A stretch of 28,346 bases of DNA from Amoebophrya sp. A120 (GCA_905178155.1 CAJINV010000004.1:9270765-9299110), one strand, 5' to 3'; counted from the first letter of the stretch, positions 1,464 through 28,346 are shown. Numbers and translations are program-made. The notes: generated from the letters alone by a model not told the origin.

Positions 1464-4400
1464 ATGAGCGCGAGCCGCACCTCTACCCAGCCCCAGCCCC
1501 TGGGGATGGGTGACAAGAAGGCCGCCGGCGAGCTTGGGTCGGGCCACGTGCTCTTTTATGCAATGCAAAAGTATCGTACTAGTATAAATTGCATTACAAA
1601 TTCCCCCAGCATTACAAATTGAATTTGTGATGCTGATTTACTTTGAGAAGGAGATTTGTAATGCATAAATGCAATTACTACGAGTACGATACTTTTGCAC
1701 AGGATATCTTTGCGGGGAACACGAAACTCGCCTCCGCGAGCAATATCAAATGTAAAAATGTCTGGATGTCTGGAAGAATGCAACTTGTGATGCTGAATTT
1801 GGATTCCAAAAAAATCTGTATTGCGTGAGCAGCAAAGGGAGTGCAATTTTTGCTGCGCGGAGAGGGCATTTGTCATGCGGAATAGGCATCGCGAGGCCCT
1901 CAAAAAATCTGTGATGTTAGGGCATGCATCACAGACATCATGGCCCAGGCAAAACATGCATGACAAGTCTCAGAATCTTCCAGACCCAGACATTTTTACA
2001 CTTGATAAGCAAGCGGAAGATGCAAATAGCGGACACGGAGGAAAACGCGACGAAGTTAGAGGCGAGTCTGAACAGCCTTGAGTCGATTGAAGAGCAAAAA
2101 GCCACCGCACAGGGCGCTCTGTCCCAGAAAATGCTGCAAGCACTCGCCTCCTCCACCCCAGAATCGGATTTGCAGGTGGACGAGAAGACGCAGCGAGTCT
2201 CTCTGTCGAAAGCAGGCATGCTCGTGGATGCGGGGGAGAACTTCACGAAAAGCCTGTTACCTCCCGCTTGGTGCGAGGAATGGGAGCTGAATTTGCCGGA
2301 TTACCCGAGAATAGACTTCCCGCAGAAAAAGACGGATAAGTGGTCTCTGGACACGCTCCTCGCGATGGTGCAGCACTTCAAAACCAATCCGGCGCAACCC
2401 TTGCATCCATTGCTGATCATGCGATTGCTGAACGACGCGGAGATTGTGATGAGCAAAAAGTACCACCACGCAATACACCGGGCCACGATTCCGAAGAAAT
2501 CCATGGAACAGAAAGCGACGGACGACAACAAGGAGGGGTTGCTCAAAGGAGGTATTTGGGATATTAAGTTCCTGATGTGATTATAATTTTCGATTTAATG
2601 CTGTGGGAAGCATTTTGATTTTTCATCTAGGCTGAATTTGATAAAACAACACAAAATTCTTGACAACTGCATGTGTGTGACACATTTCTTCTTGATTGCA
2701 CCATAAAACTCGACGACAAAAACAGATTTGAGCCAATTCTCGCTCCTGAACAAGAAAGCCGTGGCCACCCCTGGGCGAACCATCGTCGTCGGCGACACCC
2801 ATGGGCAATTAGAAGACGTGCTTTGGATCTTCTACAAAAACGGGCTGCCAAGTCCCAGCAACGCATACCTATTCAACGGCGATATCGCCGACCGTGGATT
2901 CTACGCGACCGAGATTTTCTCCATGGTACTGGGGTTCATGCTGCTGTATCCGAATTGTGTGGACATGAACCGGGGAAACCACGAGGATGAAACGATCAAT
3001 TTAGACCCCCACTGCGGCGGGTTTTATGAGGAAAACATCCAGAAATACGGCGGGAACATTGGATCCACGATCTACGAATCGTACTTAAAGATCTACTCAA
3101 ACCTACCGCTGGCGAGCGTTTTGGAGAAACGGGTTTTTATCGTACATGGAGGTTTATCGCGGGTAACGGAGGGCATGCTGAAAGTGCTGAGTGGCATTGA
3201 CCATCACGTCTCCAGCACCCCCGAATCCCCGGATAACACGGCGGATACGGTGTTTATCGACGCCATGTGGTCAGATCCAATGGAAGGGAAAGGTATAGAG
3301 ACAGTGATTCTACTGTGATTGAATCTGTTTTCAGCTAGTAAAAATTCGACTTGTTCGCATGTGCGTGTGAAAACGATCTGCATCTGTAATTACCTGTCTA
3401 AAGTACTACCTCGTCGATGCGCGAAGTTTAGGAACTTCGTATGATTTAGATTTTCATTTGAAGTACCCATAACCACGCAGGTATCGTACCATCGAATCGG
3501 GGCCCTAGTCTCGTTCAATTCGGCCCGGACGTCACCATGAAGTTTCTGCGGCAAAACGGCTTCCACTTAGTCGTCCGGTCCCACCAGCCACCGTCCAACA
3601 AGGACGGCGTCTTTTTCCACCACGACGGGAGGCTGATAACGGTTTTCTCTGCTAGTAACTACTGCGGCTGGTACGGAAACACAGGTGCGGTTCTGATCTT
3701 CTCCCCAGGGAAGGGAGATACGAAAGCGGCGTCGTTACCGACGATCGAGATTGTCCGTCATTTTTCCCCCACGTTCGATATGCTCGCAAATGCGGAAATC
3801 ACAACGAATGATTTGTTGGCGATGGACCAGATGCAAGCGAGAGCAAAAAACGCAACCAGCATGGAGCACGCCGCGATCAAAAATAGTCGGCAGTCGCTGT
3901 CGCAGAGAATGGACAAGCTCATCTTCGAAGTAAAAACAAGGTTCGCAAGGATTCTAGTGGATAACAAGCAGGGCTTGTGGAAATTCTGGCTCACGCACGA
4001 GAAAGAGGTATGCAGCTTTTTATCACATTTGAGTTGTTTTTTATGCACTTAGCATGCTTGCTGCAAGAAAATCATCAAGAACAAACTATATAGCTCCACT
4101 ACTTCTGTGGACATCGTAGTAAATACGCGACGCATCCTCGCACAAATTTCTTGACTCGATGTCATAGAAGAAAACTACGAACCATACAATTCATCTACGT
4201 TCGAAAAATCAAAAACCAAAACCACAGGGCGACTACAATGATAACCGAAGTAAGAGCGCGCCGCCGGGGCTGATTACCTTTGACGCCTGGAAGGAGGGGA
4301 TTTCGTCTATGGTTGGGACGAACGGATCCGTTTTGGGCGGCATCCCGTGGCAGCAAATCAAGGAGATCCTTTCTATCGAGGACCCCCACACGAAACTCAT

Positions 4401-6244
4401 CGACTACCCACTGTCGCTCCATCGGTTCCGGGTTGTTATTCGGGACGAGATCAAATCCGAGACGCAAATTCAGGACGTGCGGAAATCGGTCACGACGCAA
4501 TCATCCCTTTTCCCCAAGAAAACGGTGGATGCATCCGGGAACGTGATGCGCCACACGAACTGGATGGAGTCCATTCTGGCAAGATTGTTCGAGATATGCA
4601 TTGCAAATATGTGGTCTGCCTCTGGAAGGATGCAACTTGTGATGCTAAATCCGAATCATGCAAAAATCTGTGTTGCATGAGTCCCAAAAGCTGACTCTTT
4701 TCGACCGAGTTCTTGCAAGGGAGTTTCTCATGCAGGATAGGCATTTCAGAGACCTCACAGAGTCTGTCATGCTAGGTTCCGCATCATGGAAAACCTGCAT
4801 CACAAGTTTGCACTCTTCCAGACCCAGACACTTTTGCACCTGATACGAGACACTGTTGCTAGAAAACGTCCCTTGGCAGGACTTAGTCAAGCGGTTCGCG
4901 GCCCCCGGGTCCGCGCCCGCGTCGGCGGAGAGCGACGACGACGACATTCCGGAAATTGACATGGACACGTTGCAGAAAGTGCTTTGTAGCCTGCAGAAAC
5001 CAGGAAGCTCGGGGAGTAAGACAAACGCCCTGATAACCAAGGAACAAGCCGGGTCGCTCATAAGAACACTGACGGGGTACGGGGGAAGCAGGGTAATATT
5101 AAAGTCACTCCTTTGATAACATCACAATGACCTTGAATATCACGACTACGGAATGGAAAACGTCGTGACTTTTCTTTGCCTTCTTTGCCAGCACACAGTC
5201 CAAAAACGAATTCTTTGCGCTTGTTCTACTTCTGGTGTTGTACTTGTTCTACCTAGTGGTCTATATGTTCCTCGCATCAGAAATTCAAATTTACATTGCG
5301 AAAAAAAACCTACACAAAAAAAACTCCTATCACAGCATTCCGTGACCAACCTGAAGCCCTCCTCCATTTCCCTGCTCGAGTTCCTCTCCCGCCTAGAGGT
5401 CTGCTACACCGGGTATAACGTGCAACGCGTCAGGCAGAAGGTCGAGGCCGGGATCAAAGAGGGCCCGGACGCAGAACAGTCCATCATGAATTTAAAGTTC
5501 GGCACCTCCGTCGTGGCAACTTCCCTGCGTTTAATTGGCCAGGAGATCTACGCGGAGTCCGAAGATTCCCGGTCCGCGAGCAAGAGAACGCACAAAATTT
5601 TCCAAGAAGCGGACAAGGACCAGGACGGGTTGTTGAGTAAGGCAGAATTTCTCGACGTGGTGGACCAATTACTGGCCCGGTTTAAAGATTTTTTGCAGGA
5701 ACATTTTCTATCCAGCAAATCCAAATACGCAACCTCCGGGGCGAAGAAGGCGGCAAAGTCGGATTTACCCTTGTCCCTCCTCGAAGATATCTTCAAAGTG
5801 GTCGACGTAACGCGACAGGGGAAAGTTAGCTATCTCGAATTCCTCCACTGCTTCCAGCCCTCCGACCGGTCCGACGACACCGTCGGGCTGTCGAAGCTGG
5901 ACGCGGATTCTTCGATTCCGCACTTGCGGCACCCGGCGGAGGAGATCCGGGTGGCGTTGATGGAGCAGATCTGCGGATTTCTGTACACGAACAAACAGGC
6001 GCTGCACAAAATCTTTCTCTTCTTCGACAAAAATAACTCCCACCTGATCGAGAAAAAGAACTTCGTGAAGGCGGTGAAGTGTCTCAACGTGACCATCAGT
6101 CTGAAAGCGCCACCGTTGACCAACGACCAGATCGAGATGCTCGCGGACCATTGTGTCCTGAACACCGAGGAACAGATAGACTACCTCCAGTTTCTGAACG
6201 CGCTGGTGATCTGTGACATGCGGACCGGGGAGATGTTTGACTAG
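1464..6244 (+). CDS. PPEF: Ser/Thr protein phosphatase with EF-hands (PPEF/RdgC-like), paralog 1, ~1091 aa, 8 exons
   Basis: Manual join 1464-1556,1712-1743,2013-2551,2726-3292,3481-4007,4228-4594,4851-5092,5336-6244 (3276 nt, frame continuous, colinear with paralog 2). PPP motifs: [37 protein letters not shown]. The IFYKNGLPS motif is typical of PPEF. EF-hand-like loops: DKDQDGLLSKAE, DVTRQGKVSYLE. GT-AG introns at 2552-2725, 3293-3480, 4008-4227, 5093-5335, plus three TIR-type introns. Start codon inferred from homology (ELGSGHVLF vs QLGAGQVLF). Junctions within the 5-bp repeats can slide. Confidence 0.88.
1557..1706 (+). mobile_element. Introner/MITE-like non-canonical intron, TIR family B, 150 bp
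   Basis: Left end TATGCAATGCAAAAGTATCGTACT; right end (reverse complement) TATCCTGTGCAAAAGTATCGTACT. Direct repeat TCTTT at 1552-1556 and 1707-1711. Removal gives HVLF|AGNTKLASAS, matching paralog 2 [14 protein letters not shown]. Confidence 0.92.
1744..2007 (+). mobile_element. Introner, TIR family A, 264 bp
   Basis: Ends TATCAAATGTAAAAATGTCTGGATGTCTGGAAGA and rc TATCAAGTGTAAAAATGTCTGGGTCTGGAAGA. Direct repeat AGCAA at 1739-1743 and 2008-2012. Removal gives ASKRKMQI (paralog 2: ASKRKAQI). Confidence 0.93.
4595..4845 (+). mobile_element. Introner, TIR family A (asymmetric ends), 251 bp
   Basis: Left TATGCATTGCAAATATGTGGTCTGCCTCTGGAAG; right rc TATCAGGTGCAAAAGTGTCTGGGTCTGGAAG. Direct repeat CGAGA at 4590-4594 and 4846-4850. 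Removal gives [12 protein letters not shown] (paralog 2: [12 protein letters not shown]). Confidence 0.92.
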
Positions 6245-7908
6245 GGTCGTGACAGGTGGGAAACGGAACTTATTTGTTGCTGTGGAGGTTCTCCTCCCAG
6301 CGCACTTCTAAATTAGTGTCAGACCGCTCGTCGCCTAGTACGACCTAGGGTAGACCTAGTCTTAAGCTTGAGTTTTTACAATTTTTATATACGCAAGTTT
6401 CGCGTGCTCCTGGCAGCACGGGGCTTCTATTGTTTCTGAGTTTTTTTTGTCATAGTCATAGATTACATCACACAAGCCCAAGCAGCCACCTTGCTGGGTA
6501 GGTCATTAGTTCACAATCATCAGCTTTATGCAACCATTGTATTGTTCACCACGTATCGGAAACAAACAGTTACTTTTCCTGCGGTAGGAGGTAGGTACTA
6601 GCCGCGTTTTTTTATAGATGCAACGTATGTATTGGCGACTTTTACAGGTACGTGTAATAGAGGTGGCTAATTACAGAGTTTCAGTACCTGGTTGCTGTTT
6701 GAAAAGCATCATTATGCACATACATTTTTAGACGTAGGCTGTTGATGTGTACTAGCTTTTCCATCACCGAACGTTCTTCACATGATTTTTGGCCCTTGCG
6801 GCGACCCAACGCAACGAAAAATGTTCGGATCTTGATCAAGACTTTTACACGGAGGCGGACCTACAGTCATTTTTCCTGGTGCTTCTTATTTCAGAAAAAT
6901 CGAAAACAGACCTACTGCTGTTGCAAGAGGAATGCCGCTTTTACTTTTTCTCCTCGCCGCACTGATCATGCCTGCGAGAAAGAAGAAACTGAGGAAATTG
7001 CCTATGATTCTTACTGTCGGTAGATCATCAAAAGGACAAAATTCCCTGTGAAGATTATCACTGTCGGTACCGTCTCTTTAAATCTGCATTGCTTTTGCTG
7101 CTCTGGTTGAATATTGTATTTCTTTCTCTAGCTAAACCTCCAACTCCCGTCGGTCTAAGCTCCACCCGCTGGTCATGCCGGCATTCTGTGAAGATCGGTA
7201 TTGCCTGATGCGCACTAAGTGTCGTGAAGGTCGTTTTCTTCCACAAATTTTGGATTTGTTGTGTCATGTTTCCTGCTTGCTGCACTTGGCTTGCTGTAGT
7301 CGGTTTAAATGCTTAAGAACTCGGCAAAGCGCTTCGTCTGTAGGTACTCGTGGCTTTGATATTCGTGCAAGGTTGAATGCTTCTCGCCGTCTTCGTCAAG
7401 ATGAAAAATAGAACGTCAGTATGTTCGTCCACTGCTTGCTCGTCCTACTTTCCATTTTTGTGTATTTGCTTACCTGCTTCAACAATGTGATGCTCTTCGT
7501 CTGCTTCTGTTTATCGACAAGATAGAAGCCATTTTTCATTGTACCTCGAACGACACTAAAACAGGACCTCAATTTGATGAGCCCCATCAAAACTAGATTG
7601 CTCAACTGAGATTTACTTCATCCAAGAAAACATTTTTACCTGAATTAGAACTCCCCCCCAAAAATTGTGGTCTTCATTAGTCCAGAACAGAATCTTCATG
7701 CCCGAGGTGTGGTCAGCTGGCAGCTAGCACCTGTTGGCGTGGAGCGTGCCTGTAGAAGGTTGTGCAAAAGTTGTGCTCGTCGCTCCTCCGGGGGCGGTCA
7801 GTCGGAGTGAACTTGAATTTCCATAAATTCGCGCACAATAAGAAACTAAGCCAGAACCATAATTCCTACGAACCAGTGTAGAACAAGAGACCACAAATAT
7901 CTCAAAAG

Positions 7909-10900
7909 ATGAGCACGGCCAAACCGCTTCTTACCCGCGCGAACAGCGGTTCCGGGCAAACGCTCGCCCGCGGCAAATCCAGCGGGCTTTCCGCCCCCAA
8001 GGGGCTGGATATGGAGCAGCTCGGGGCCGGCCAGGTACTGTTTCAGGGGAACAGCAAGCTCCAGTCGGCTTCCAAGAGGAAAGCGCAGATTCACGACACC
8101 GAGGAAAACGCCACGAAGTTGGAGCAGTCGCTGAACTCCTTAGAGTCCATTGAGGAGCAGAAGGCCACCGCACAGGGAGCCCTGTCCGCGAAGATGCTAC
8201 AGGCGCTGGCGTCTTCCACCGCGGACAATGATCTCCATTTGGATTCCCAAACCGCAAGGGTTTCCCTCACAAAATCCGGAACCGTGCCCGGTGGTAGCGG
8301 GGAGAACTTCTCCAAATCGCTACTCCCAGCCGCTTGGTGCGAGGAGTGGGAGTCAAATCTGCCCGATTACCCCAGAATAGACTTCCCCCAGAAAAAATCC
8401 GACAAGTGGACCATCGACACGATGCTGGCGATGGTGAAACACTTCCAGACGAACGCGGCGCAACCCTTGCACCCTTTGCTCATCATGCGATTATTGCACG
8501 ACGTGGAGATCGTGATGAGCAAAAAGTACCACCACGCCATTCACCGGGCGACCATTCCGAAGAAGTCCATGGAGCAGAAAGCAGCGGAGGAGAACAAAGA
8601 TAATTTGTTGAAGGGCGATTTAACGCAGTTTTCCTTATTGAACAAAAAAGCGGTCTCCACCCCGGGGAGAACCATCGTCGTCGGCGACACGCACGGGCAG
8701 TTGGAGGATGTGTTGTGGATTTTCTACAAGAACGGGCTACCAAGTCCGAGCAATGCGTATTTATTCAACGGGGACATCGCGGACCGCGGATTTTACGCCA
8801 CCGAGATTTTCGCGATGGTGTTCGGCTTCATGATTATGTACCCGAATTCGGTGGACATGAACCGCGGGAATCACGTATCCTGAGTAAAAACGTCCCCATC
8901 CCAGAGTTGTCATGCAGATTTGCGATTACAGGAAGATTTGTAATGCGCATCTCCTTGAGATGCATTTCTAATCGTGTTTTGGCATTTGTAATGCTGTAAA
9001 CAGGATTAGGGAACGGCTTTCTCATGCGGCTTTACTTGCTAGCCAGCCCTACACTGCATATGGAAGCTTGTCATGCAGAACTCCCCAAGCTGGGGGATTT
9101 GTGTTGCAGACTTTCCATCTGCACTATGGTGTGGGGAGGTTTTTACAGAGGATATCACGAGGACGAAACGATCAACTTAGACCCGCATTGTGGCGGGTTT
9201 TATGAGGAAAACATCCAGAAGTACGGGGGGAATATCGGCTCCACAATTTATGAGTCCTATCTAAAGGTGTACTCAAACTTACCGTTGGCGTCCGTGTTGG
9301 AGAAGCGAGTTTTCATCGTGCACGGTGGCTTATCGAGGGTAACGGACGGAATGCTGAAGGTGCTCAGCGGCATCGACCACCACGTGTCTTCCATCCCCGA
9401 ATCACCAGATAACACGGCGGACACGGTGTTTATCGACGCCATGTGGTCAGACCCAATGGAGGGGAAAGGTATGTGTTACTTTTTTTTTTTATGATGAAGA
9501 AGACTCTGACACTGACTCTGCTACTGCTTGGATTAGAAATTTTCTACGAAATAACTCGATGAACCTGTTGGAGGCAGGTGAACTCGATCTACTGTCGCAA
9601 GCAGTGATCTAGTAGGGCGCTATCTTTCATCAACATCTGTATGAGATTTATCTTGCATGAAGACGACCTTGTCCTTGACTTCACCTCGATCACACGACAG
9701 GTATTGTGCCCTCGAATCGCGGCCCCAGTCTCGTCCAATTCGGCCCGGATGTCACCATGAAATTCCTTCGCCAAAACGGCTTCCACTTAGTCGTCCGGTC
9801 CCACCAGCCTCCGCCCAACAAGGACGGCGTGTTTTTCCACCACGACGGGAGGCTGATAACGGTTTTCTCGGCTAGTAACTACTGCGGCTGGTACGGCAAC
9901 ACCGGCGCGGTTTTGATCTTCTCACCAGGAAAGGGGGATACCAAAGCGAGCAGTCTCCCGACTATTGAGATAGTCCGGCATTTCTCGCCGACCTTCGATA
10001 TGCTGCAAAACGCGGAAATCACGACCAACGACTTGCTCGCGATGGACCAGGTAGCCAACCGCGCGAAGAACGCAACCAATATGGAACACGCGGCCATCAA
10101 AAACAGCAGGCAAGATCTGACCCAAAGGATGGACAAGTTGATCTTCGAAGTGAAAACGAGGTTTGCGCGAATTCTAGTGGACAACAAACAGGCTTTATGG
10201 AAATTCTGGCTCGCGCACGAGAAGGACGTACTGAATTGTTTTTTCGTTTAGAAGACGATTATGATGTGAATCCTGAGAGATTAGTAGATCCATAGCAAAG
10301 AAAAAAGCACTACAGGCGTTGATGCAGTGCTGTGTTTTAGCTTTGGAAGGTGGATAAGCATAAGTATGGTGGTAGACGCAGACGTAGTGTAGCTTCTACG
10401 ATAAGATCTACTTTATCTGGCTCATATTGCCCATTAGCAATAGAAATTTAGCAAAAGTTTCCATTTCAATTCTTCACAACAGGGCGACTACCTCACCCCG
10501 GCCACGAAGAACACTCCGCCTGGATTGATTACTTTCGACGCCTGGAAAGAGGGTATTTCCAGTATGGTGGGGTCCTGCGGCTCGGTGCTGCAGGGCATCC
10601 CGTGGTCCCAGATCAAAGACATTTTGAATATCGAGGACCCGCACACGAAGCTGATCGACTACCCTTTGTCCCTCCACCGGTTCCGAGTGGTGATTCGGGA
10701 TGAAATTCAGGCGGAATCCGCCCTGCAGGACGTGCGGAAATCTTTAGCCATGCAGTCGACCTTGTTCCCGAAGAAAACCGTAGACGGGTCCGGCAACGTG
10801 ATGCGACACACCAACTGGATGGAAAGCATTCTTGCGCGGTTGTTTGAATCTTTGCTCCTGGAAAACGTCCCCTGGCAGGATCTAGTGCAGAAATTCGCGC

Positions 10901-12750
10901 CCCCGGGCAGTTTATCAACTGTAAAAATGTCTGGGTCTGGAAGAACGCGCGATCTGTCATGCTGCTTTTCCATGACCCATGAGGTCTGGAATGCAGGACC
11001 TAGCATGACAGATTCTGCGAGACCTTTCGAATGCCTATCCTGCATGAGAAACTCCCTCCCGACTTGGTTAAAACTGGACGACTTTTGGTAATCATGCAAC
11101 ACAGATTTTTGCGTGCTGCAGATTTAGCATGACAAGTTGCAATCTTGATCTTCCAGACCCAGACATTTTTACATTTGATACAGTTCCGCGGCGTCAGGAG
11201 ACTCCAATTTACCCGAGGTGGACATGGGAACGCTGCAGAAGGTGTTGCAAAGTTTGAGCCAGAAGGGGGCGTCCAGGGGCTCTCGGACCAACGCCTTGGT
11301 TACCAAGGAACAGGCCGCGTCGCTTGTCAGAACGCTCACGGGGTACGGCGGAAGCAGGGTATAATTTTGGTGACTTGATGGACTTACTTTTGCGAAAAAA
11401 TGTATGACTGTGATGTATGTTTGATGCGATGGAGTTAGAGATGGAGTTCAGTCACTGTCGCTCTACGTCTGTTGTTGAAACAGAAAAGATAAAGATACAA
11501 AAAAACTACCTTGCAAAAACTATTATTCTAGAACAAATTTTTCATCCTCCTACAACAACCCTCACAGCACTCGGTGACGAACTTGAAGCCCTCCTCCGTT
11601 TCCCTGCTCGAGTTTCTTTCCCGCTTAGAGGTTTGCTACACCGGGTATAACGTGCAACGCGTCCGCCAAAAGGTGGAATCCGGCATCAAGGAGGGTCCGG
11701 ACGCGGAGCAAACCATTATGAATCTGAAGTTTGGCACGTCCATGGTGGCCACCTGTTTGCGGCTGATCGGCCGCGAGATTTACGCCGAGTCCGAAGACAG
11801 CATCTCCGCGTCGAAGAACACTTTTCAAATTTTCAAGGACGGGGACGTGGATAAAGACGGGCTGCTCTCCCGCGCGGAATTTCTGGAAGTCGTGGACCAG
11901 CTGCTGATGACCTACAAAGATTTTCTCAAAGACTACTTCCTGTCCGGAAAATCCAAGTACAACGTGTCCAGCACCGGCGGGCCGGTGAAGCGCGGGGCTA
12001 AATCCGATTTGCCCGTGGCCTTGCTGGAGGACATTTTCAAGGTGGTAGACGTGACCCGGCAGGGCAAAATCTCCTACCTCGAGTTCCTCCACTGTTTCCA
12101 GCCGTCCGACCGCACGGACGACGTCGTGGGGTTAAGGGACAAAAACAAGGAGAAGCAGAGGACGCTGAAACACCTCAAGCACCCCGCGGAGGAGATCCGG
12201 GTGGCGCTGATGGAGCAGATCTGCGGAGTATTATATTCGAACAAGCAGGCGCTGCACAAAACCTTCCTCTTCTTCGACAAAAACAACAGTCGCAGCGTCT
12301 CGAAAGCGACGTTTTGCAAGGCGGTCAAGTGCTTGAACGTGAGCATCAGTCTGAAGTCGCCACCCTTGACGAACGATCAGATCGAGATGCTCGCCGACCA
12401 CTGCGTGCTCAACAGCGACGACGAAATTGACTACCTGGCGTTCTTATCAAATGTAAAAGTGTCTGGGTCTGGAAGAGTGGAACTTGTGATGCGCATTTCA
12501 GAACATACAAAAATCTCTGATGCATAGGCAGCAAAAGCTGCCCACTTTCTGTCACCAAAATGGCGGATTTGTCATGCGGATTCGGCATTGCGGAAGCTTC
12601 TCGAAACCTGTGACGCTAGAGCTTCCATGCCAGACCTTCTGTGTCATGCAGAAACAGCATGACTCTTCCAGACCCAGACACTTTTACATTTGATAGTTCT
12701 TAAACGCGCTCGTGGTGTGTGACATGTACACCGGTGAGATGTTCGACTGA
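7909..12750 (+). CDS. PPEF: Ser/Thr protein phosphatase with EF-hands (PPEF/RdgC-like), paralog 2, ~1110 aa, 7 exons
   Basis: Join 7909-8875,9160-9468,9701-10227,10483-10912,11186-11358,11568-12444,12701-12750 (3333 nt). Same PPP motifs and EF-hand region as paralog 1, ending [14 protein letters not shown] introns 9469-9700, 10228-10482 and 11359-11567 sit at the same positions as in paralog 1. Three TIR-type introns sit at different positions. Confidence 0.9.
8876..9154. mobile_element. Introner, TIR family C, 279 bp, inside the RGNHE catalytic motif
   Basis: Left TATCCTGAGTAAAAACGTCCCCA; right rc TATCCTCTGTAAAAACCTCCCCA. Direct repeat TCACG at 8871-8875 and 9155-9159. Removal restores [12 protein letters not shown], identical to paralog 1. 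Confidence 0.92.
10913..11180 (-). mobile_element. Introner, TIR family A, 268 bp, reverse orientation
   Basis: Ends TATCAACTGTAAAAATGTCTGGGTCTGGAAGA and rc TATCAAATGTAAAAATGTCTGGGTCTGGAAGA. Direct repeat CAGTT at 10908-10912 and 11181-11185. The interior resembles the reverse complement of 4595-4845. Removal gives [18 protein letters not shown]. Confidence 0.93.
12445..12695 (+). mobile_element. Introner, TIR family A, 251 bp, perfect 34-bp TIR
   Basis: TATCAAATGTAAAAGTGTCTGGGTCTGGAAGAGT occurs inverted at both ends. Direct repeat GTTCT at 12440-12444 and 12696-12700. Removal gives [22 protein letters not shown]. Confidence 0.95.
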
Positions 12751-14222: not shown

Positions 14223-17200
14223 ATGTCGACAAAAGCCAAGATTTTTACCCGGACGAGGTCCTTCGATCTCAACACGACCTTGGGGACGAGGAAAAAACCA
14301 CTTTCGGTCCTGCTAATGCCCGCCCTGAAGATGTGGGCACTTCTTTCCTGCCTGGTCGGGACGATGGGACCATCTTCGACGTCATTTATGAATTTTTGCG
14401 TAGTTGCAGCACCATACACATACACGACTTCCTCGTCTCAATTTGTTCAGGGAGGTCCAGCCTCCATCACAATCCTGAATGCTCTGAGCGGAAACAAAAT
14501 CACACACCTTTGCGAATTCGAGTTGAGAAGTTGGCTCCTGCAGGGGAAAACGGTTGGGGACTTGCGGGAGCTCGTTTTGCAATCCGACAAGGAGCGCTGG
14601 GGAAGTAGGAGAAGTCGCGTGTCGCTGGTCGTCGACAACAAAAGGAATGAAGAACGTTACCAGCAGCCCGATGTTGCTTCCTCGTCACATATGACATTTC
14701 TCACCGACGATCGTCTTAAACTTGAGGACCTGGGGCTTTGGCTACAGGCCCACCTTGACACGGAACTGGAACGAGTACAACGGCAAGGGGGGGCTGGTCC
14801 ACGAGCTCGTACGGCTGCGCCGATCACGCCCGCCCTAGTGGCTCCTTACTTTCCACCGCGGCCCTCGTCATCCACGATCTTCCGGTCACCAATGCCCACC
14901 TTGTCGTCCATGAGAATGCAAGAACCCTCGAGCTGCTCAGCAGGAAGTCTTTTTTATCAAGAAGAACCTTCCAGCTGGGCCCCCTCAGCTGCACAGCAGC
15001 ACATTGTGATTCTCGCTGGCTACCAAAAGGGCTCGGTCCCACTGCTTCTGCCCTCCAGGACGATCCCTGGTGGTGGTATGTCCAGCAGAACAAGGGCAAG
15101 TTCCTACGTGGAGGAAGTGCAAACCGGTTGGCGGGTCTTCACCCGGCCACAGTTCCTGGTGCTGAAGCTGGTCGGCGCGTACGCGAACTTGCGGGTCGGG
15201 GTGGAGAACCTGTGGAAGACGAAGGACCACGCGGCCGACCTCTCGTTCGCCCTGGCGCTTGTGCAGAAAGCGGCGGAGCTTGGGGTAGTAGATGTGTCAA
15301 GAACAGGAGCATCTAGGCCATTTAATATCTCGAGGATCCCCACTTCGTCGAGTACAACAGCGGAGGAAAAAATATCACCGTTGAAGGCCGACATGATCAA
15401 GTGCAATGGGGAGCGAAGACGCTGGCGTGAGGAAGTGAGGCGGAAGCTGCAAGGGTTTCTTTCGTACGTTGAACGAGAGTCTGCTCATCTCGAGAGCCAT
15501 CGTTCTGCTTCGCCCGCGCGGCCCCAAACAACGTATGATAATGATTGTGATGTCCGCGGTACTTCTACAGGCCCCCACTTGGCGGGAAGCGAAAGTGCAA
15601 GTGGCGAACATCAAGCGCGTTCTGCCTTAGACGTCGACCACGGAAGTAGCACTACCCGGCGCTCAAGAAGAAGACAGAGAAACAGAAAGCAAAACGCACC
15701 TAAAAATGGTACTGAAGCTGCACTGGAGATGAATAAACGAGACGAAGAGCTGGCTCAGTTGCACGCTCAGGTGCGGCAAGCCCTGAGCAGGGCTGCCAAG
15801 AAGAGTATGCTTTTCAAGGACGAAGAGTACCATCGCCAGTTCCGCGGTTGTACTAACGAAAGTGTTAAAAATGTTTCGCGTTTGTGGCAGGAGTTCACCA
15901 AGCTGATAAACGACTTGCGGGTGCAAAGTGGTAAAAATTGGATCGGCGTGGACCCGCAGACGGAACGGCCGGCGGAAAGCGGATCTGAGGACCGGTCAAC
16001 AGTTTTGCAGCCCTACTACGAGGGACTGCTCAATGGCGAAATGAAAGAGCAAACTACGCTTTTGGACCAAATAAAGACAGAGTTTACGGACGCAAGTTAT
16101 GCGACGTTTGTTGATGAACTTTTGCACGGCACGGAAAAAGACCTGGAATATTTTTACCACGGTCGTGAGCAGTCGTCTTCTTTTTACAGCAAGAACTCCG
16201 CGTTGTCCGCACGAGTAGTAGAAAATGAGGATCTACAGCACGAGCGGGCGAGGAGATCTTCTTCAGACCTTTCTCATGACGGAGATGAAAGCTCCTGCCG
16301 AGGGGCGGCCATAAAGATGATCCCTCCGACCGCCGCGTCGAGTAGTACTAGTACAGCAGCTCTGGTGGGACGACGGACAATACCTACTGCTTCAGGTTCC
16401 CCTCCAGGTCGTGGGTTTTTTTTTACGAAAGAAGCGGTGATTCGCGACGGGTTGCGATTTCTCCTGAAATCTGCCGCCGCGACGAAGAAAATGCGCAGCA
16501 AGCTGAAAAAGTTGTGTGACGAACTCTTTCTCCGGGTAATCCGTCCGACCGTCAGGCGGTGGCTGCCGGGCTTGGAATTGGAGACGCTGCCGCAGGACCT
16601 GAAGCCCATCCCAGACCTCCTGGACCGCCCCCGGAAGTTGTATGCGCGAAGCGGAAACGTACCCAACCTACAACGTCTTCCGTGGCAACTTCAGGAAGCA
16701 CTTCTTGCAGGTGGTCCTGCTCAACCCTTGACGGACGAGCAGCGGCTGCAGCTGCTGCGTGGGATGTTGACGGTGGACCCGCCGCTGAAATATGCCGCAA
16801 ATCACCCGGTGGCAGAGGCCTGGGCTCGCGAGGGCAAAGACGTCAAAGAGTTTTTCGAGATGGATCTCTCCGATAATTTCGAACTGGTCGACCTGAAAGC
16901 GGATTATCAGAGGGACTATTTCTGGGTCATAACAGCTAGATACGGAAAAAATGGTGAAAATATTATTGGCACACCATCAAACGGACGACAATCAAAAGCT
17001 TCTGGCCCGGATGGGCGAGATGAACGAGAAATACGTCATTCGAAGATATTTGAGTTCGAGTACCGATATAAAGCGGGCGTGGGCACGGAGGCAAAATTAG
17101 ATATGTTGAATATCAAACCATATGACAGAAGCAATAGGGCGCTCAGACTCGAAGAGCTTCGGGTCAAGAAGCTCCTTCTGGTGCGGATTATGCGGAACAA

Positions 17201-17684
17201 CTCTAGCAGCAGCGCCACCGTCTTCACAGATGTATCGACAGTAAATTTCCCGTACACGTACAAATGCCGTCTCCGCATGACAAAACTTGGCTTCGATCCT
17301 AGTTTAGCATGACAAGTTTTACGCTCCAAATTGGTGAAATTTGTGTTGCATCTTGTACATGTACGGGAAATTTGTATTGCATAAGATGAAGCAGAAGAGT
17401 ACGAGGAATATGAGCCTGCTGCTCTTTGGACCTGGTCCCGAAGTTTTTCTTTAGGAAACGAGCTGGAGCTGCGGCAAAGCAGCAACGAGCTGCCGGGAGG
17501 GATCACGTTCAAAAAGCTTAAACTCGTAGCCACGGCGGACGTCACCGACGAACCGGGGAAGGTCTCCCCAATGCCCCACAAGGTCATCGACCCGGAGCTT
17601 TACGCGACAGCAGACGACGCGGCTGAGGCGGCGGAAAAAGCCTTAGCGTCAGGCCTCCTGCTGCCGCAATCGCTCCTTTATTAA
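14223..17684 (+). CDS. Hypothetical protein, ~1100 aa, 2 exons; possible N-terminal hydrophobic segment and ubiquitin-like domain
   Basis: 3-kb open frame (ORF 14190-17312; first ATG 14223, alternative ATG 14316). Removing the TIR element 17233-17383 plus one repeat extends the frame (VFTDEAEEYEEYEPAALWTW...LPQSLLY*) to TAA at 17682-17684. Join 14223-17232,17389-17684. No family recognised. Confidence 0.7.
17233..17383. mobile_element. Introner, TIR family D, 151 bp
   Basis: Left TATCGACAGTAAATTTCCCGTACACGTACAA; right rc TATGCAATACAAATTTCCCGTACATGTACAA. Direct repeat AGATG at 17228-17232 and 17384-17388. Contains the stop codon that truncates the ORF (17310-17312). Confidence 0.88.
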
Positions 17685-19527
17685 GCTGGAATGGGTGTGA
17701 AGTTGTCTCGCGAACTCTTTCTTGAGTGGACACTGCATTGATTTAATACTTAAATGAAACGGCTCCACGCCCACCTCCTCCGTATGAAGTGCATTGATGT
17801 CGACTCAGACCAACGACGAAGGTCAACGCCCCGTCATCCATACTTAGAAAGTAGAATTGCATGATGCATCAAAGTAGCAAAGATTGGTGTGCCTCTAGCG
17901 GCCTCAAAGTCATCGAGTGAACAGCAACGAATGAACATGAAGAGTGAAGAACAAATTAGCATGTTAATTGAAATTTTAGATTTTATGACGTGGTTTGTTA
18001 GTACATGTACAAGCAACAAAGGTTCGCCTCTATAGAGATGGGTGTAACAAATGTGATAAACTTAAACTTTGCAGCAGCCCAGTTGCTGCACGACGGCGTT
18101 TAATATTTTGCGGCTTAGCCTTCGAAGACGAAAGAACATAGACTTGTTGTTATTTTCATTCATATACCCATTTTTTGTTTTTCCCTTTCCCTGCAAAAGA
18201 GGGTGGTTCGAACTGATAGACGTGCAGTTTTGTAGCAAGTTAGTAGTCTTGGACCACTTTACTTCGAAAAAAAACCAAAATGCAACTGCAGGGGCAGAAG
18301 CAAACCAATTTTTCGGAAATTTCCTGACCACGGAAATGAAATTTATGCTAAGTAGGCTAGTTTTCATTTTTTGGACTCTTGGCGTTGGATCGAACTCGAA
18401 GCATTACTTTTTCTTTTCTTTGCTGGCCATACTCTTCCTGGTACTGGTTTAAGTACCCCATGCAAGAAGAGGAGCCGACCAAGTAGGGCACAATCATATA
18501 GTTTGTGAAAGAAGAAGAACGAAACGAACCCACGACCACCAGACAACACAAGGTAGAAGCATGAAAGCCAACACATCTTAAAGTGCCCCCTTCTACTGGC
18601 CTTCAACCAGAGAAACATATTTTCGTTCATTCACTTTCTGCTCTTTCAGTATGAATTTCGGTTCACTCTTCAACACAGTCTCGTCTCCTATATCCGCGAC
18701 GAGCCACCTCAGCCTATGGCTCCGTCTCCGATCGGTTCGTTACAAGGAAAGTCGTAGCGTCCTCGTCGTCCTCGTAATAATGTGGCCTTCGTCGTCGTGA
18801 TCATGTGTCGCCGCTCATTTATAAATGTGTAGTTTTTGTTCACGTTTACGATGCATCGTCTGTTATTTCGTTCGCTTGTTGTACAGAACACCTTGGTTGT
18901 TCATCTGCGTGCTCGTGCTGTCTTGGTCTTTCTCGTCGTGTATGCTTTACATACTACCTGGACCGAGGACCACCTCGCGACACCTACGTCCCCGCTTCTT
19001 TCTCGTGCTATCGTGGCATCGCTATCTTCACATCGCTATCAAATCTGAACGACCTTATGCATTTGTTTTCACCTGTTTGAACTGTTTCGTGTTCGTCTCG
19101 TCCTTCTCCTTTCCTTTCCATTTTTTCGTTTAGCTCGTTGTACTCATTGTTATTACCTCTCAATTTCGGCACTCACCTTTTTGCATGTCATGAAGCGTTT
19201 TTTTTTTTTCATGCCACCAGGTGATATAGTAGTAGTACCCTGTTCCTGTTGTTCACATTATAGCGTTTTTTATAACCCCACTCCCTTGCCCGATGCCGCC
19301 CCCCTTGTGCATTTGCAAGTTTGATGTTTCTGTAGTTTCCTACACTCTTATGTAGTGCTGGTCACACATCATCTCTCGATTCCTGTAAAGAACTGATGTA
19401 CGACTGTAAGCGATTTATTTGTTGGCAAGAATAACACCCCCCCCTGCACCAGTTACATTTTTGGTTCTGTGAAAATGCCAACTTTCGCAAGATCAACAAG
19501 AAGGTAGACACGATCACAAACCTCAAG

Positions 19528-22500
19528 ATGTTGCAGAAGAAGACTAACAGCACCGCATTCCTGTCGCTGAAGAGCAATGCTACGGCTACCTCCACCGACC
19601 CAGAACGTCGCGGCACGACGACCGTGCCAAGCAGTGTTAGCTCCGGCCTGTCCTCGGTCGGCTCGCGGTTTTCCATAGCCAGCAACAAGACCGAAGGAGG
19701 ACATCAAGCGGGCTCTTCTGGGCGAACGTCTTCTGATACAACGGCTGGCGCAGCTGTTGTAGGTGTACAACAGCATCACCATCATCATAGGGACAAGTCC
19801 AATGCTGCCTTGCAGAAGCAGCTTGAGCACTGCCTGCAAATCTTCGAGTCGGTGGAGGAGCAGAAAGCGACGACCCAGTCCGCGCTGAGCGCCAAAATGC
19901 TGCACGCTTTGATGCTCTCGGAGGAGCAGCACGAGCGCGAACGGCGGGCGGGAAAGCACCCGGCATTCGGGTCTCTGCAGAGTAAGGAGCCGGTAGTGCC
20001 ACCACCTGGAGGAGGTGCAGCTCCATCTTCCGGAAGAAGCTCGCCGAGGGGGGGAGTTGTAGTACCTACTACTGGAGTTGTTGTGGGCGCCGGTGGAGAT
20101 CAGAGCGCGGCAACCGCGACAAGTAGCGACCCCGACTTGCCGACAGGTCGTGGTCCCAGACCGAGACCGTCTGCCGCCGAAAACGCAGCGGGATTCGCTT
20201 CCTTTTCTCCGCAGCTCGTCACGGTCCCGGGTTCTCTCGACCCGCACACAGCAGACGAAGACCAACAGCACCGCAACAAGAACAAGGGGGACGAAATTAC
20301 AGGTAGTAAAACATCTTCAGCTACAGGAAGTAGAAATATTACCAGTAGTCCCTCCGCAACTACTACCTCCTCCTCCTATCAGAAGCCTTTAGTATCTGTA
20401 TCCCCACAAGCTGTAAGTAGTAAATCCTCGCCTGCCACCTCGGGCACGACAACCAGCAGTCCCCGGCCCAGCAAAGGAGCCATGACAGCTGCCCGGAGTG
20501 GGTCGTTCCAACAGCAGCGAAGCAAGAAGCAAAGCCTGCGCCATGCGACGTCCTGGTACAACCAGTCACTGTTGCTGAAAAAGGACCACTTTGTCAAGCA
20601 GTGGGAGGAAACTTTTCCGGACTGCCCGAAAATCACCCATCCGCAGCAACAGCCCGGCATGGGTGAGCATTGGTCATTTGTGACGGTCCGGGAGTTGATC
20701 AACCACTTCCAGAAACTCCCGGAGCAACCCTTGCACCCGTATTTTGTCATGCGGCTGCTGTCCGACGCGGAAAGGCTGATGACGAAGAAGCACAACAACG
20801 CGGTCTTCCAGCTCACAGACAAAAGTTTATACTTCTCAGGAAGCGGTACAACTAGAGGTAGTGAAAAGAAAAAGTCAGGGAATAAAGTGGAAACAACAGC
20901 AGGAGCTGCTGCAACTTCTGCAGCAGTTGCACTTGCAGCGGAAGTAAATACTAAAGACATAAAGCAAGAACCTTCCAAGTCCTCCGCCCCGACTTCGCGC
21001 CTGATCATCGTCGGCGACACGCACGGGCAATTGGAGGATGTGTTGTGGATTTTCTACAAAAATGGGCTTCCCTCGGCGGAAAATCAGTACCTTTTTAACG
21101 GGGACATCGCCGACCGCGGGTTTTACTCAATCGAGATTTTTCTGTTGGTGTTTTCGTTGATGCTCATCTTCCCCAACCACGTGCACATCAACCGGGGCAA
21201 CCACGAGGACGCGAACATGAACATGGACCCGCACAGCGGGGGCTTCTACGGGGAGTTGATCGCGAAATACGGGACGCAGCTCGGGCAGTCGATCTACCAC
21301 CAAATGCTACGGAACTACGCGGTGATGCCGCTGGCGACGTTGTTGAAAGAGTCGAAAATTTTCATCGTCCACGGGGGTTTGTCGCGGGTGACGGATAATT
21401 TCCTACAGACCCTCTTAACCTTGGACCGGCAAACCCGGTGCTGCTACGCGATCCCGGATACGCCGAGTCACAGCAATCCGGAAACTTGCTTTTTAGATGC
21501 GATGTGGGCGGACCCGGCGCCGGACGAGGGGGACCGGTCCATCGGAATCTCGCCGTCGAGTCGGGGGCCGCAGCTGATTCAGTTTGGAAAGGATGTGACG
21601 AAAAAGTTTTTGAAGCAATCCGACTGCAAACTCGTGATCCGTTCGCACCAACTGCCCGACAACAACGATGGTGTGCAATTTCACCACGATAGGAGGCTGA
21701 TCACCGTCTTTTCGGCTTCGAATTATTGTGGGATCCACGGGAACCAGGGCGCCATCTTGGTTCTGACCAGGCACGAGGAAGGGGGCCCGCATTTGGAAGT
21801 CGAGCGGCATTTTTCTCCGAGTTTTGAGCAATTGAAAGAGGTGGATTTCTTCGCCAGTTATGGAGAAACATATGGAAATGCCATGGGAGCAGGAGCCGCA
21901 GCTAGTGCTCGTGATTCAAAAAGAGCAGGAATTACGAAAAGCTTGGTTCCGCAGGGGACCATTGGACGAATTGCGGTGGAGGACCGAGGAGCAGGAAGGG
22001 CGGACACATCTGAAGAACTACAGGTAGTTGACGAGGAGGAGGGGGACCAAAATAAAAATACCAAAAAATCTCCTGCTGCGGCATCGGCTTCTGCTCCGGA
22101 AAAATTGCTATCCTCTTCCCCGCGCACCTCCGCTCTGGAAATGGAAAAGAAGGCGATGGCCAAACTGCGTAGCGGCGCTCTAGGTCGCCTCCGGAAGAAA
22201 AAGCTCACCTACGAGGTGAAAACCCGGTTTTCCAGGATCCTGGTGGAAAACAAGCAAGCGCTCTGGAAATACTGGCTCGCGATCGAGCATCAAGGGCAGC
22301 AACAGCAGCAGCAGCATGGAGGACCACGACGAACTTCCACCAGTGACTTGTCTGACCGTTCGAGTGACAGTATCCGGAACTCAAGTAGGCCCAGAAAATC
22401 TAACACACCCGACGGAATGATCACGCAGCAGAGTTGGTCCGACGGAATCGTCTCGATCGCCGGTGCGCCGGATATGAAGGAGCTGCCCTGGGGAAAGCTG

Positions 22501-25500
22501 GTCTCGGAAGTGCTGGGGATCGAGGACGAGCATTCGCATCTGATCGACTACTATTTCACGTTGCACAGATTCCGGGTGGTAATTAAAGAGGAACTAGAAG
22601 CGGAGCACGGCAGACGGATCCAGGGTCGGAACAACAGGGGGAATAAAAGAAGTGTGGTCTTTGCAGAAGGAGAGGCTGGCGCAGCAACATCTTCAGAGCA
22701 GTACAAGAAGATGTTGAACACAAAATCTTCGAAGTCCTTCGACCCTCGCGGCACCATAGAGCTCATGGAGGTTGATAGTCTTATTTCTGGGTCTGATCCG
22801 GTGGGTCCTGCTGCTGGTGACAGCACGCAGCTATTAACGAATCGTCGAGCAATCATAGCTCAATCCACGACCTCCACAGGCGGAACTACACCAGCGCGCC
22901 AGCTTCCCGCTGCTGAAGGCGAACTTCCAGCTCTATCTCGGGGCGTTTCGGAAGATGATACGGCAACCAACATAGAAATAATTCCTCCCAAGATGAACGT
23001 TCTCGACCCTACTGGCGCGGCGGGCGGGAACGTCGACCTGCGATCCAGGTTAAACGCTTTCGACACCATCCAGGACAAACGTGTTATGGCAACGAATGTC
23101 ACGTTAAAGAAGAGATCTACCGAGGACTTGGAGCGCAGCCGCAGGCTTAGCAGCGACGCGACAGCTATAATTTCCGGCACGGCTGCAGCGGTCGTGCTGA
23201 AGGACGTCGATAGTATTATTCAAAATGCCACAGACCACGCTCCTCCCGAGAACAACGATAATGAAACCAACTACAACATCGGGGCGCTTTCTCTAGAAGC
23301 TCTGGAAGAGAAAGCTGGAGCTGCAGTACTAGGTCGCAAAACTGTGCCACAGAACCCCGCGCACGACGAGGCACAAAAGAGACCGGTCTTTCAGCAAACC
23401 TCGTCCAATTGGATGGAGGGGATTCTGGCGAACATTTTTGAGAAGCTGTTGCGGACGGAGGTCCCCTGGATGGACTTGGTAGAACGGATGAACATCAAAA
23501 AAGAATCCAGCAATGCGTCTGCTGTTGGTGCTGGAAATAAAATTAAAGCGGAAGTGAACAATAAGACCGAAGATGGAAGCAGCGCAAAAAATAACCCCGA
23601 CGTTGAACAGCAAAACGAAAGCGAGACCCAAGCCGATAGACGCACCAAATTTGCCGAGCTGATGGAAGAGCCATTGGATGTGAAGGTTTTTGAAAAGATT
23701 CTGATGTCTTTTAACGACCTTTTCGCGGACTACAGTGAAGACAATTCGACTTCCACTACTTCTAGGAGGTCCAGATCGAGCGAATATCAACTGCAAAAGT
23801 GTCCTCTGGGTCTGGAAGATTGCCAGGTTTGTCATGCAGGTTTTCTATGGCTCATAACGTTTAGAATGCAGGAGCACCTAGCATGACAAAGTCTGTGAGA
23901 CCTCTATCATGTCCGTCCTTCATGAGAAATTCCCCCTCAGCTTGGTAAAAAAGGACGGCTGTTGGTAATCACGCAACACAGATTTTCTGCATGATGCAGA
24001 TTTAGGTTTAGCATTACAAGTTGTGACCTTCCAGACCTAGACATATTTGCATTTCATAGCGAGACGCTGCTGACGAAAGACCAGGCGGCGAGTTTGATCC
24101 GCACGTTGACAGGCTACGGGTCTTACAATGCAGCTCCGAGTAAAGTAGAGCAACAGCAAGAACAAGATGGCACTGGTACAACTAAAACTACGGCTCCTAA
24201 TAAAACCTCCGGCAATATCAAGAAGGGTAGTACCAAAGGAAAAGGCAAGCAACTACTGTCTCTCGCCGAATTCCTTTCCCGGTTGGACATTTGTTACATA
24301 TCCTGTGCAAAAGTATCGTACGCGTATAAATGCAAGTCTTGCATTACAAATATTTTTCTTTGAGGTAAATCAGCATGACAAATTTTATTTCTCATGCTGA
24401 GGAAATTTGTAATGCATTTATACGACTACGATACTTTTGCAATGCATATTACACGGGGTACAGCAATCGTGTGCGACAGAACCAAAGACTTAGGGAGCAA
24501 TCGGACGAGGGGAATACTATCAATGTCAACAATGTCAACGCGGCATTAATCCGGGCCAGTAGCAACGAGAGCAGCGAGGAGAGTGAGTCGACACCCGATA
24601 ATGTTTTTGCGAAGAAAAAGACCAGCACGACCGAGCGGACGTCGACCCAGTCCACACAATCTGTTGACCGCTTTGATTTCAACAAGTACGGCAGTACGAC
24701 GGTCGCGATCTGTTTGCGGATGATTGGCCGAGATATCGGGAATAAGACGTTTGAACTCTTCAAGAACGCGGACAAGGATCAATCCGGAATGCTGACCGAG
24801 AAGGAGTTTTTCGCGGTCACAGAACAGTTGTTACTCCCGCACGCGGAGTATCTGCAACAGTACTTTTTGTCGGATAAAAAATTTAACTCGTCCACCTCGC
24901 CGGGCAACAAGAACACCTTCGCCCCGATGCCGCGCACAACTACTTCAGATGGAACAACAGCAGGTATTGGTACAACCAATGCCGCAAATAAGATTCCGGA
25001 TTCCCTTCTCCGGGAAATTTTCAAGACGGTCGATTTTAACAAAACGGGAAAAATCAGCTATTTGGAGTTTCTCCATTGCTTCCAAGACCCAGACGGCGAC
25101 TTCGGGTTTGAAAAGGTGACAAACGAGAATGTTGACAGCAGTGTTACTAACACAGCCAATGTCAAGCACGACGAGTTCCGCATCGCCTTGATGGAGCAGA
25201 TTTGCGGGGTGCTCTACACGAACAAACAGGCGCTACTCCGTATGGATGTGTCAGGATCGAAATCGTCAAAGTTGAAATAGTTTGCCATGCATAATAAAAC
25301 CGATACCAGTCAGAAGCCCACGTATCAAGCGGCGCATGACAAATTTTGGCACCGTCTAAATCCAATTTGTCATGCTGTTTAGGGACAGAGGGCGTCCTTT
25401 GTCATGTTGCTTTAGCAGCTGTGTCGCAGACTCCAAACAGGCTGACAGTCGGCCTCACTTGCCATCCCTGCAAGAGAAGCACTTCATGCCTTGGAGTTTA

Positions 25501-26118
25501 TGCATGAGAAATCATTTCAACTTTGTTGATTTCAAACCTGACGCCTCCATACTCCGGGTGTTCCAATTTTTCGACGACAACCACGACCACCGGATTACGT
25601 ATTGAGAGGAAAAATCCCCCCTCCCCATATTGAAAAGGTATGTCTCCGGAAATTTGTGTTGCTGATTTGAGGTCACAAATCACATCTGTCTTGCAAGAAG
25701 ACAAGGGCAAAAGCTTCCGCCATATTATCGAGGCGATTTGTCATGCCGTTGGGCCTAAAGGGAGGCCGTTTGCCATGCTGAGCAACTAGACCCATACGCC
25801 CCCAGCTAGCCGGCGGATCTGGCCGCTATGCCTTTCTGCAACGCAAATCTGATTTGTGTACCCAAATCCAGCATCAGAAATTTCGTTTTGATATGGGGAG
25901 GGGGGATTTTTCCTTTTGATATTACGCAGATGGAGTTTGTGAAAGCCTTGAAGTGTCTAAACATCGCGATCAACCTCCGGGATCCGCCGTTGACGAAGCA
26001 ACAGATCCAAATGATGGCAGACCACTGCGTTTTGGATAAGGACGGGAGAATCGACTACGTGCTGTTTCTGAACGCATTGTGCATCTGCGACATGCAAACC
26101 GGAGAGATTTTTGATTAA
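19528..26118 (+). CDS. PPEF: Ser/Thr protein phosphatase with EF-hands (PPEF/RdgC-like), divergent expanded paralog 3, ~1837 aa, 5 exons
   Basis: Join 19528-23784,24064-24298,24454-25240,25557-25599,25927-26118 (5514 nt). Motifs [40 protein letters not shown]-like loops DKDQSGMLTEKE, DFNKTGKISYLE, DDNHDHRITQME. Ends CDMQTGEIFD*. Long S/T/A/G-rich insertions. Start codon is uncertain, and in-frame stopless introns cannot be excluded. Confidence 0.85.
23785..24058 (-). mobile_element. Introner, TIR family A, 274 bp, reverse orientation
   Basis: Left TATCAACTGCAAAAGTGTCCTCTGGGTCTGGAAG; right rc TATGAAATGCAAATATGTCTAGGTCTGGAAG. Flanks are GCGAA (23780-23784) and GCGAG (24059-24063). Interior is similar to 10913-11180. 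Removal gives SSETLLTKDQAASLIRTLTGYG. Confidence 0.9.
24299..24448 (-). mobile_element. Introner, TIR family B, 150 bp, reverse orientation relative to 1557-1706
   Basis: Left TATCCTGTGCAAAAGTATCGTA; right rc TATGCATTGCAAAAGTATCGTA. Direct repeat TTACA at 24294-24298 and 24449-24453. Removal gives LDICYTGY (paralogs: LEVCYTGY). Confidence 0.93.
25241..25551. mobile_element. Introner, TIR family E, 311 bp
   Basis: Left TATGGATGTGTCAGGATCGAAATCGTCAAAGTTGAAAT; right rc TATGGAGGCGTCAGGTTTGAAATCAACAAAGTTGAAAT. Direct repeat CTCCG at 25236-25240 and 25552-25556. Removal gives KQALLRVFQFFD. Confidence 0.9.
25600..25921. mobile_element. Introner, TIR family F, 322 bp
   Basis: Left TATTGAGAGGAAAAATCCCCCCTCCCCATAT; right rc TATCAAAAGGAAAAATCCCCCCTCCCCATAT. 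Direct repeat TTACG at 25595-25599 and 25922-25926. Removal gives HRITQMEFVKALKCLN. Confidence 0.92.
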
Positions 26119-26390: not shown

Positions 26391-26468
26391 TATGGATTGC
26401 AAAAGTGTCTGGGTCTGGAACAAGATTGTCACTTGTCGTGCTATTAAATACAAATCATGCAAGGAATC
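26391..26468 (+). mobile_element. Truncated family-A element end in apparently intergenic DNA
   Basis: TATGGATTGCAAAAGTGTCTGGGTCTGGAACAAGATTGTCACTTGTCGTGCTA matches the family-A terminus and subterminal sequence. No partner TIR was seen downstream. The right boundary is approximate. Confidence 0.7.
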
Positions 26469-27057: not shown

Positions 27058-27146
27058 ATACATACATACATACATACATACATACATACATACATACATA
27101 CATACATACATACATACATACATACATACATACATACATACATACA
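27058..27146. repeat. (ATAC)n microsatellite, ~22 units
   Basis: Perfect ATAC tandem run. Confidence 0.97.
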
Positions 27147-28298: not shown

Positions 28299-28346
28299 TA
28301 CATACATACAGACATACAGACATACAGACATACAGACATACAGACA
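28297..28346. repeat. (CATA)n then (CATACAGA)n microsatellite
   Basis: CATA x3, then alternating CAGA/CATA to the window end. Confidence 0.93.

Follow-up and report, generated by a model that had tools for sequence, protein, structure and literature searches.

Introners of Amoebophrya sp. A120 appear to leave the transcript in one splice register with free terminal bases

Tens of thousands of introns in Amoebophrya have ends that look random, and how they are removed has been a question since 2021. For the introners of strain A120, Farhat et al. (2021) give direct repeats measuring 3-5 nt, call the splice sites 'variable' and leave the border unassigned (PMC7789003). We analysed a 28,346-nt stretch of the A120 genome (GCA_905178155.1, CAJINV010000004.1:9270765-9299110; hereafter the window) that holds three paralogous phosphatase genes, with Metallophos domains in genes 2 and 3 and EF hands in gene 2, and one gene without a Pfam match (Table 1). 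These genes are interrupted by seven GT-AG introns and by 11 TAT…ATA elements with terminal inverted repeats (TIRs). Both sets had been described in a first-pass annotation and proved real, and the N-TAT donors that it had assigned to the 11 elements are exact. The elements are 150-322 nt long and flanked by 5-nt direct repeats, which are perfect in 10 of the 11 cases; the sole imperfect duplication belongs to the element at 23785 (GCGAA/GCGAG). Once the canonical introns and the elements, each with one repeat copy, are excised, the frames of genes 1, 3 and 4 are open, as is that of gene 2 after a 1-base fix.

Genes 1 and 2 have three canonical intron positions in common, and the reading frame of gene 3 has none. 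Because six of the seven canonical introns lie at these three positions, the set represents four independent positions. Introner positions differ among the three phosphatase paralogs, which suggests that the elements were inserted after duplication. A GC-rich 19/38/57-nt tandem array and CATA-type microsatellites occupy positions 1-383, 27058-27147 and 28297-28346 of the window.

Table 1. Features of the window. Coordinates of introner introns follow the proposed register (N-TAT…ATA-NNNN).
Feature	Coordinates	Strand	Element	Direct repeat	Donor or ends	Evidence
Phosphatase gene 1	1464-6243					
Phosphatase gene 2	7909-12750					
Phosphatase gene 3	19474-26118					
Introner intron	1556..1710	+	1557-1706	TCTTT	TTAT	frame restored
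Introner intron	1743..2011	+	1744-2007	AGCAA	ATAT	frame restored
Canonical intron, gene 1 only	2552..2725	+			GTAT…CAG	frame
Canonical intron	3293..3480	+			GTAT…CAG	frame
Canonical intron	4008..4227	+			GTAT…CAG	frame
Introner intron	4594..4849	+	4595-4845	CGAGA	ATAT	frame restored
Canonical intron	5093..5335	+			GTAA…CAG	frame
Introner intron	8875..9158	+	8876-9154	TCACG	GT…AC	RNA joint 8869>9154, 6 letters ambiguous
Canonical intron	9469..9700	+			GTAT…CAG	RNA contigs and frame
Canonical intron	10228..10482	+			GTAC…CAG	RNA contigs and frame
Introner intron	10912..11184	+	10913-11180	CAGTT	TTAT	RNA joint 10907>11181, 5 letters ambiguous
Canonical intron	11359..11567	+			GTAT…CAG	RNA contigs and frame
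Introner intron	12444..12699	+	12445-12695	GTTCT	TTAT	RNA joint 12439>12696, both samples
Introner intron	17232..17387	+	17233-17383	AGATG	GTAT	frame restored
Introner intron	23784..24062	+	23785-24058	GCGAA/GCGAG		RNA-resolved register site
Introner intron	24298..24452	+	24299-24448	TTACA	AT…AC	RNA joint 24293>24449
Introner intron	25240..25555	+	25241-25551	CTCCG	GTAT	RNA joint 25233>25550
Introner intron	25599..25925	+	25600-25921	TTACG	GTAT	RNA joint 25593>25921

Contigs X3-X5, from one sample and not catalogued as RNA, were taken as RNA because they skip GT-AG introns. Between positions 7800 and 26400 they skip three canonical introns and seven of the eight elements covered, with a joint listed for each of the seven (that at 17233 being the one without), and no other letters; the remaining three elements lie outside this coverage. 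A second sample (X6) repeats three of these joints. Members of one family occur in both orientations and both orientations are spliced, as expected from the earlier proposal that the TIR signal can be used either way. The elements thus combine TIRs, a duplication of fixed length and a size too small for a transposase, as MITEs do, with the attributes of published A120 introners, namely a TIR of TAT, seven looser bases and AAA, short direct repeats of 3-5 nt, RNA-supported removal and dispersed families (PMC7789003). They are A120-type introners and as such already known. One end of a 250-270 nt family also lies at 26391 to about 26485, outside the annotated frames, where no matching duplication was found.

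For comparison, a pattern scan yielded 156 loci (L001-L156) that carry the same families, all from one conspecific assembly; this 364-kb sample was chosen by the pattern of one family. Two exons from the loci have 100% matches, over the query exon, to proteins named Amoebophrya sp. A120, and there are a few differences elsewhere. Elements with more than two mismatches or a TIR score under 12 were left out. A 5-nt repeat flanks 219 of 277 elements in these loci, and removing 52 without a confident strand from 280 left 228 oriented elements. All elements lie on one strand in 53 of the 54 multi-element loci. The same kind of scan in viral and prokaryote collections returned 0, 0 and 1 chance match.

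Where the two duplication copies are identical the position of the cut is hidden, and mismatched duplications reveal it. We express the cut as an offset, the intron start relative to the TAT of the element, so that -1 denotes a start one base before TAT and an end four bases past ATA, as the first-pass annotation had proposed. At the mismatched element of the window, the transcript joins 23778 to 24058 with five ambiguous letters and keeps the downstream G. The upstream A at 23784 is therefore intronic, which excludes a start at TAT itself and places the cut within 23779-23784 (offsets -6 to -1); DNA contigs carry both duplication bases at this element and no other letters. Taken jointly, the seven RNA joints allow offsets -5 to -1. 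Among the related loci, 28 elements have a protein-changing mismatch, and five of these, in four genes picked for conservation, were compared with homologs. The element L033:1770 allows only offsets -1 and 0: P0121, P0122 and the A25 protein P0124 read G-K-G, with K in the A120 model and in orthologs from A25 and from transcripts, and none of 31 rows shows H or N. At L073:3512, M-R in the A120 model P0241 gives offsets -4 to -1. The other three set lower bounds: at least -1 for L040:1742 (of 39 matches to the Rab motif among 150 hits, 23 have A and none has D), at least -2 for L016:3808 (the two close orthologs, P0002 and P0003, have F) and at least -4 for L033:3297 (G in 31/31).

Only N-TAT…ATA-NNNN (offset -1) fits all six informative elements, that is, one RNA site seen in contigs of one sample and five homolog comparisons that assume the exonic copy to be the ancestral residue, two of which use A120 gene models from which the loci differ slightly. 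By a hand calculation, registers drawn independently and at random would satisfy the six elements with a chance of about 2.6%. These results argue strongly for a constant register and disfavour a variable one. The competing view is that the cut slides within the 5-nt duplication, giving the same mRNA anywhere, and that -1 is the commonest position or a chance overlap of six sites. It could appeal to the variable sites of Farhat et al. (PMC7789003) and to the mixed per-family donor calls of Gozashti et al. 2025, whose 11 A120 rows considered here, of 118 Amoebophrya rows, contain inconsistent automated calls (PMC12130899); yet any position annotated within a perfect repeat is arbitrary. The NT-type donors of Table S4 were not taken as proof, because they are aligner-dependent. 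The polarity of 59 mismatches, under AT drift or a codon model, gave no signal, a null that a sliding cut would accommodate, as it would the GT…AG option at offset -3 in L033:3297. Against it, no offset other than -1 is common to the six elements, and no second letter is listed at 24063 in the RNA contigs used for that position. We consider a sliding cut quite unlikely and retain the constant register. In the element just mentioned (L033:3295-3555), it is a mismatch in the downstream copy that creates the GT…AG reading, making it a candidate shift to canonical ends.

With the register placed at -1, the terminal bases are free. All 16 combinations of first and last base occur among the 228 oriented elements, which bears out the proposal that both +1 and the acceptor are relaxed. 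The same annotation had noted that +1 is never C, a pattern that has a p of about 0.08 for 11 draws and does not extend to the larger set, where C stands at +1 in 46 of 228 elements (55 expected, p=0.16). The full composition (A61 C46 G77 T44) does not differ from the coding background; the element L073:3512, for instance, has the donor CTAT, and its other copy has G. AG acceptors number 22 against 19 expected (non-significant), and GT…AG termini occur in 8/228 elements in register -1, in 13/228 in any register and in none of the 11 window elements in register -1. We make no claim from the terminal-pair bias (p=0.07) or the depletion of T at exon position -1 (p=0.04), both uncorrected. Spliceosomes normally depend on terminal bases that form a G-G or an A-C pair (PMC13326754), which makes the occurrence of all 16 pairs hard for such a machine to handle.

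The bases next to the free +1 do resemble host donors. Validated canonical donors in the window and the loci begin with GTA in 13 of 13 cases (7 GTAT, 3 GTAC, 2 GTAA and 1 GTAG), so N-TAT matches T-A at +2/+3 in all 13 and T-A-T at +2 to +4 in seven. A self-trained parse in which +3 and +4 were unscored recovered all six introns of L033 and predicted 119 introns, or 94 donors after removal of 25 with a GC of 47% or more; A stands at +3 in 52/94 (23% background) and GTAT in 20/94 (5.9% background). In a separate count, 25 of 59 GTA donors are GTAT. The predicted enrichment of GTAT thus holds in that it is the commonest canonical donor, although it is not dominant. The host donor consensus is GTA with a preference for T, and the element start, N-TAT, agrees with it from +2 to +4. 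The element ends had been read as mimicking the host donor; the alignment of TAT with host GTA(T) stands, but 'mimicry' is overstated, because the transposon itself ends in TAT…ATA. T-A would match at +2/+3 by chance 1 time in 16. Canonical acceptors in the window and the loci are CAG after an A/C-rich tract rather than a pyrimidine tract, and the exon downstream of canonical introns often begins with GT (G in 31/59, T in 38/59).

U12-type introns pair an RTATCCT donor with an AC or AG acceptor. Two window elements, those with introns at 8875 and 24298, read RTATCCT and would end in AC, as had been pointed out, and one might therefore suppose a minor (U12-type) spliceosome that recognises RTATCCT as donor and AC as acceptor. 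The likeness of the pair is real but does not carry over to the loci, where none of 14 RTATCCT donors ends in AC, which already contradicts this reading; AT-AC ends number 6 against 4.1 expected (non-significant), and TATCCT is just one TIR variant (22/228). U11, U12, U4atac and U6atac are also reported absent in PMC7789003. We give the U12-type reading almost no credence.

The sites of insertion have their own signature. In the flanks of 272 elements we found a symmetric motif, T-n-G-N10-(5-nt duplication)-N10-C-n-A, in which the duplication itself is unbiased. Counted outward from the repeat, position 13 is A in 277/544 arms (p 2e-54) and position 11 is C in 249/544 (p 6e-21), equally on both sides; the corresponding counts for the window arms are 11/22 and 10/22. 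This symmetry points to target capture by a DNA transposase. It also accounts for the skew in intron phase (111/64/53, p=4e-6), which was set aside as support for register -1 since the target motif alone predicts 104/72/52.

The TIR ends, in contrast, carry an asymmetry that symmetric insertion does not predict. Among the 228 oriented elements, C at TIR position 4 is confined to the 5' end in 61 and to the 3' end in 29 (p=0.001, the best of up to 44 tests), and TATC toward the gene's 5' side with TATG toward its 3' side outnumbers the reverse by 51 to 25, which shows that the ends are read in a strand-specific way. At TIR positions 4, 5 and 7 the two arms pair in 60%, 65% and 43% of elements, and at positions 8-14 in 79-96%, so that the tips can open.

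This asymmetry bears on whether a spliceosome is involved at all. In an alternative that keeps the register, a hairpin-guided nuclease-ligase, of the kind suggested for nonconventional introns of euglenids, would cut 1 nt ahead of the stem and 4 nt beyond it, and the likeness to GTAT would be a coincidence of transposon ends. Free first and last bases would suit such an enzyme, as would the long terminal stems seen in folds, and no branch motif was found in our search, canonical introns included. U1 was not found by Farhat et al. in the part of their study cited here (PMC7789003), and euglenid introns with TIRs are released as circles without lariats (PMC11282704). However, T-A falls exactly at +2/+3 of the near-invariant host GTA, shape alone would not be expected to produce the orientation bias at position 4, and the terminal 3 bp are often split from the main stem by mismatches, which would make the stem a poor ruler. 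On balance, we regard a nuclease-ligase as rather unlikely, though less so than a sliding cut.

The introners are non-autonomous DNA transposons, and we consider it probable that they insert by distal DNA shape or sequence and are removed in one register by a relaxed major spliceosome, which would read U-A-U and cut 4 nt past ATA. A transposase would pick sites by the distal symmetric motif and not by splice signals. T-A-T would then be read as donor positions +2 to +4, with the letters at +1 and the acceptor ignored, possibly by U6/Prp8 in a spliceosome from which U1 and snRNP27 are reportedly missing, while the long stem may bring the intron ends together and the 3' site would be measured as 4 nt from ATA. 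Such an intron includes the final base of the duplication copy before the element and four bases from the start of the copy after it, so that exactly one duplication is lost and the encoded protein stays the same wherever the element inserts.

Published data fit parts of this proposal. The set of spliceosome proteins is nearly complete (PMC7789003), and Table S6 of Farhat et al. gives snRNP27 as not detected (PMC7789003). In yeasts, loss of SNRNP27K goes with a preference for +4U (PMC10581693), and by analogy the absence of snRNP27 may be tied to the preference for T at +4 in Amoebophrya. Inverted repeats of strain A25 start with TTA, and the nine commonest of the motifs listed all start with TT (PMC7789003). 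Another Amoebophrya strain has U1 and canonical introns (PMC12005148). Canonical introns are also found in strains AT5 and Kv. An Rfam search gave no match in the window. We tentatively suggest, as a possibility with somewhat less than even standing, that a U1-less major spliceosome reads only U-A-U, can do without both the first G and the final AG and sets the 3' cut by distance from ATA, with A25 having reached the same solution with TTA ends. If so, any TAT…ATA transposon would make a perfect intron, whatever its site and orientation.

Insertion at NNAGG had been proposed as a route by which an introner becomes an ordinary GT-AG intron. Copies compatible with GT-AG, such as L033:2993 with CCAGG, number 8 among 228 elements against 5.4 expected (non-significant), which does not single out NNAGG as a favoured route. 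Between element copies AG was gained three times and lost four times. Among 59 ordinary introns, from which recognisable introners had been filtered beforehand, remnants were sought as ATA at -7..-5 (0/59) and as a duplication match (none). The conversion of introners to ordinary introns is thus possible but not favoured.

Several known systems share parts of this design. Relative to A120 introners as published (PMC7789003), the elements differ here in a 5-nt repeat, one register at the tested sites, a target motif and an orientation bias. A literature search that did not extend to Fig. 3 and S19-S25 of Farhat et al., to Roy et al. 2023 and Huff et al. 2016 or to the bulk of the A120 rows in Gozashti et al. 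2025 found no paper that fixes this register or describes this target motif. The register is likely to be a new splicing rule, and the analysis further adds free termini, a target motif and an orientation bias to what has been published. Introners with TIRs and target-site duplications in Symbiodinium, Chrysochromulina, Florenciella and Aureococcus likewise have splice sites that overlap the duplication and leave mRNA length unchanged, but they carry or co-opt GY and AG, whereas the end letters of the elements studied here are unconstrained (PMC9860276, PMC12130899). Euglenid nonconventional introns resemble the elements in their TIR hairpin, duplication-like repeats, non-GT/AG ends and more free 3' bases; they differ in having CAG/CTG at +4..+6 and -8..-6 and in being released as circles, where the present elements have N-TAT-S (PMC11282704). 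The euglenid CAG and CTG do not occur at these positions here, +4 always being T in register -1. Fritillaria borealis also has transposon-rich introns, relaxed termini and a modified major spliceosome, but it keeps U1 and its termini are still biased, unlike Amoebophrya, in which U1 was not found and termini look random (PMC13326754).

A single register gives an exact prediction for each element, a start at N-TAT and an end at ATA-NNNN, and allows gene models to be put right where the two duplication copies differ. Should the spliceosome prove to be the enzyme, one lineage could dispense with the near-universal terminal G/AG rule. Two elements of the loci, L076:3321-3601 and L038:5378-5706, have repeats offset from the TIR (a repeat of 8 nt, or one of 5 nt with 3 additional bases), which could add codons or shift the cut. 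Locus L073 contains a bacterial-type gene for a PseB-like UDP-GlcNAc 4,6-dehydratase that carries at least 10 introners.
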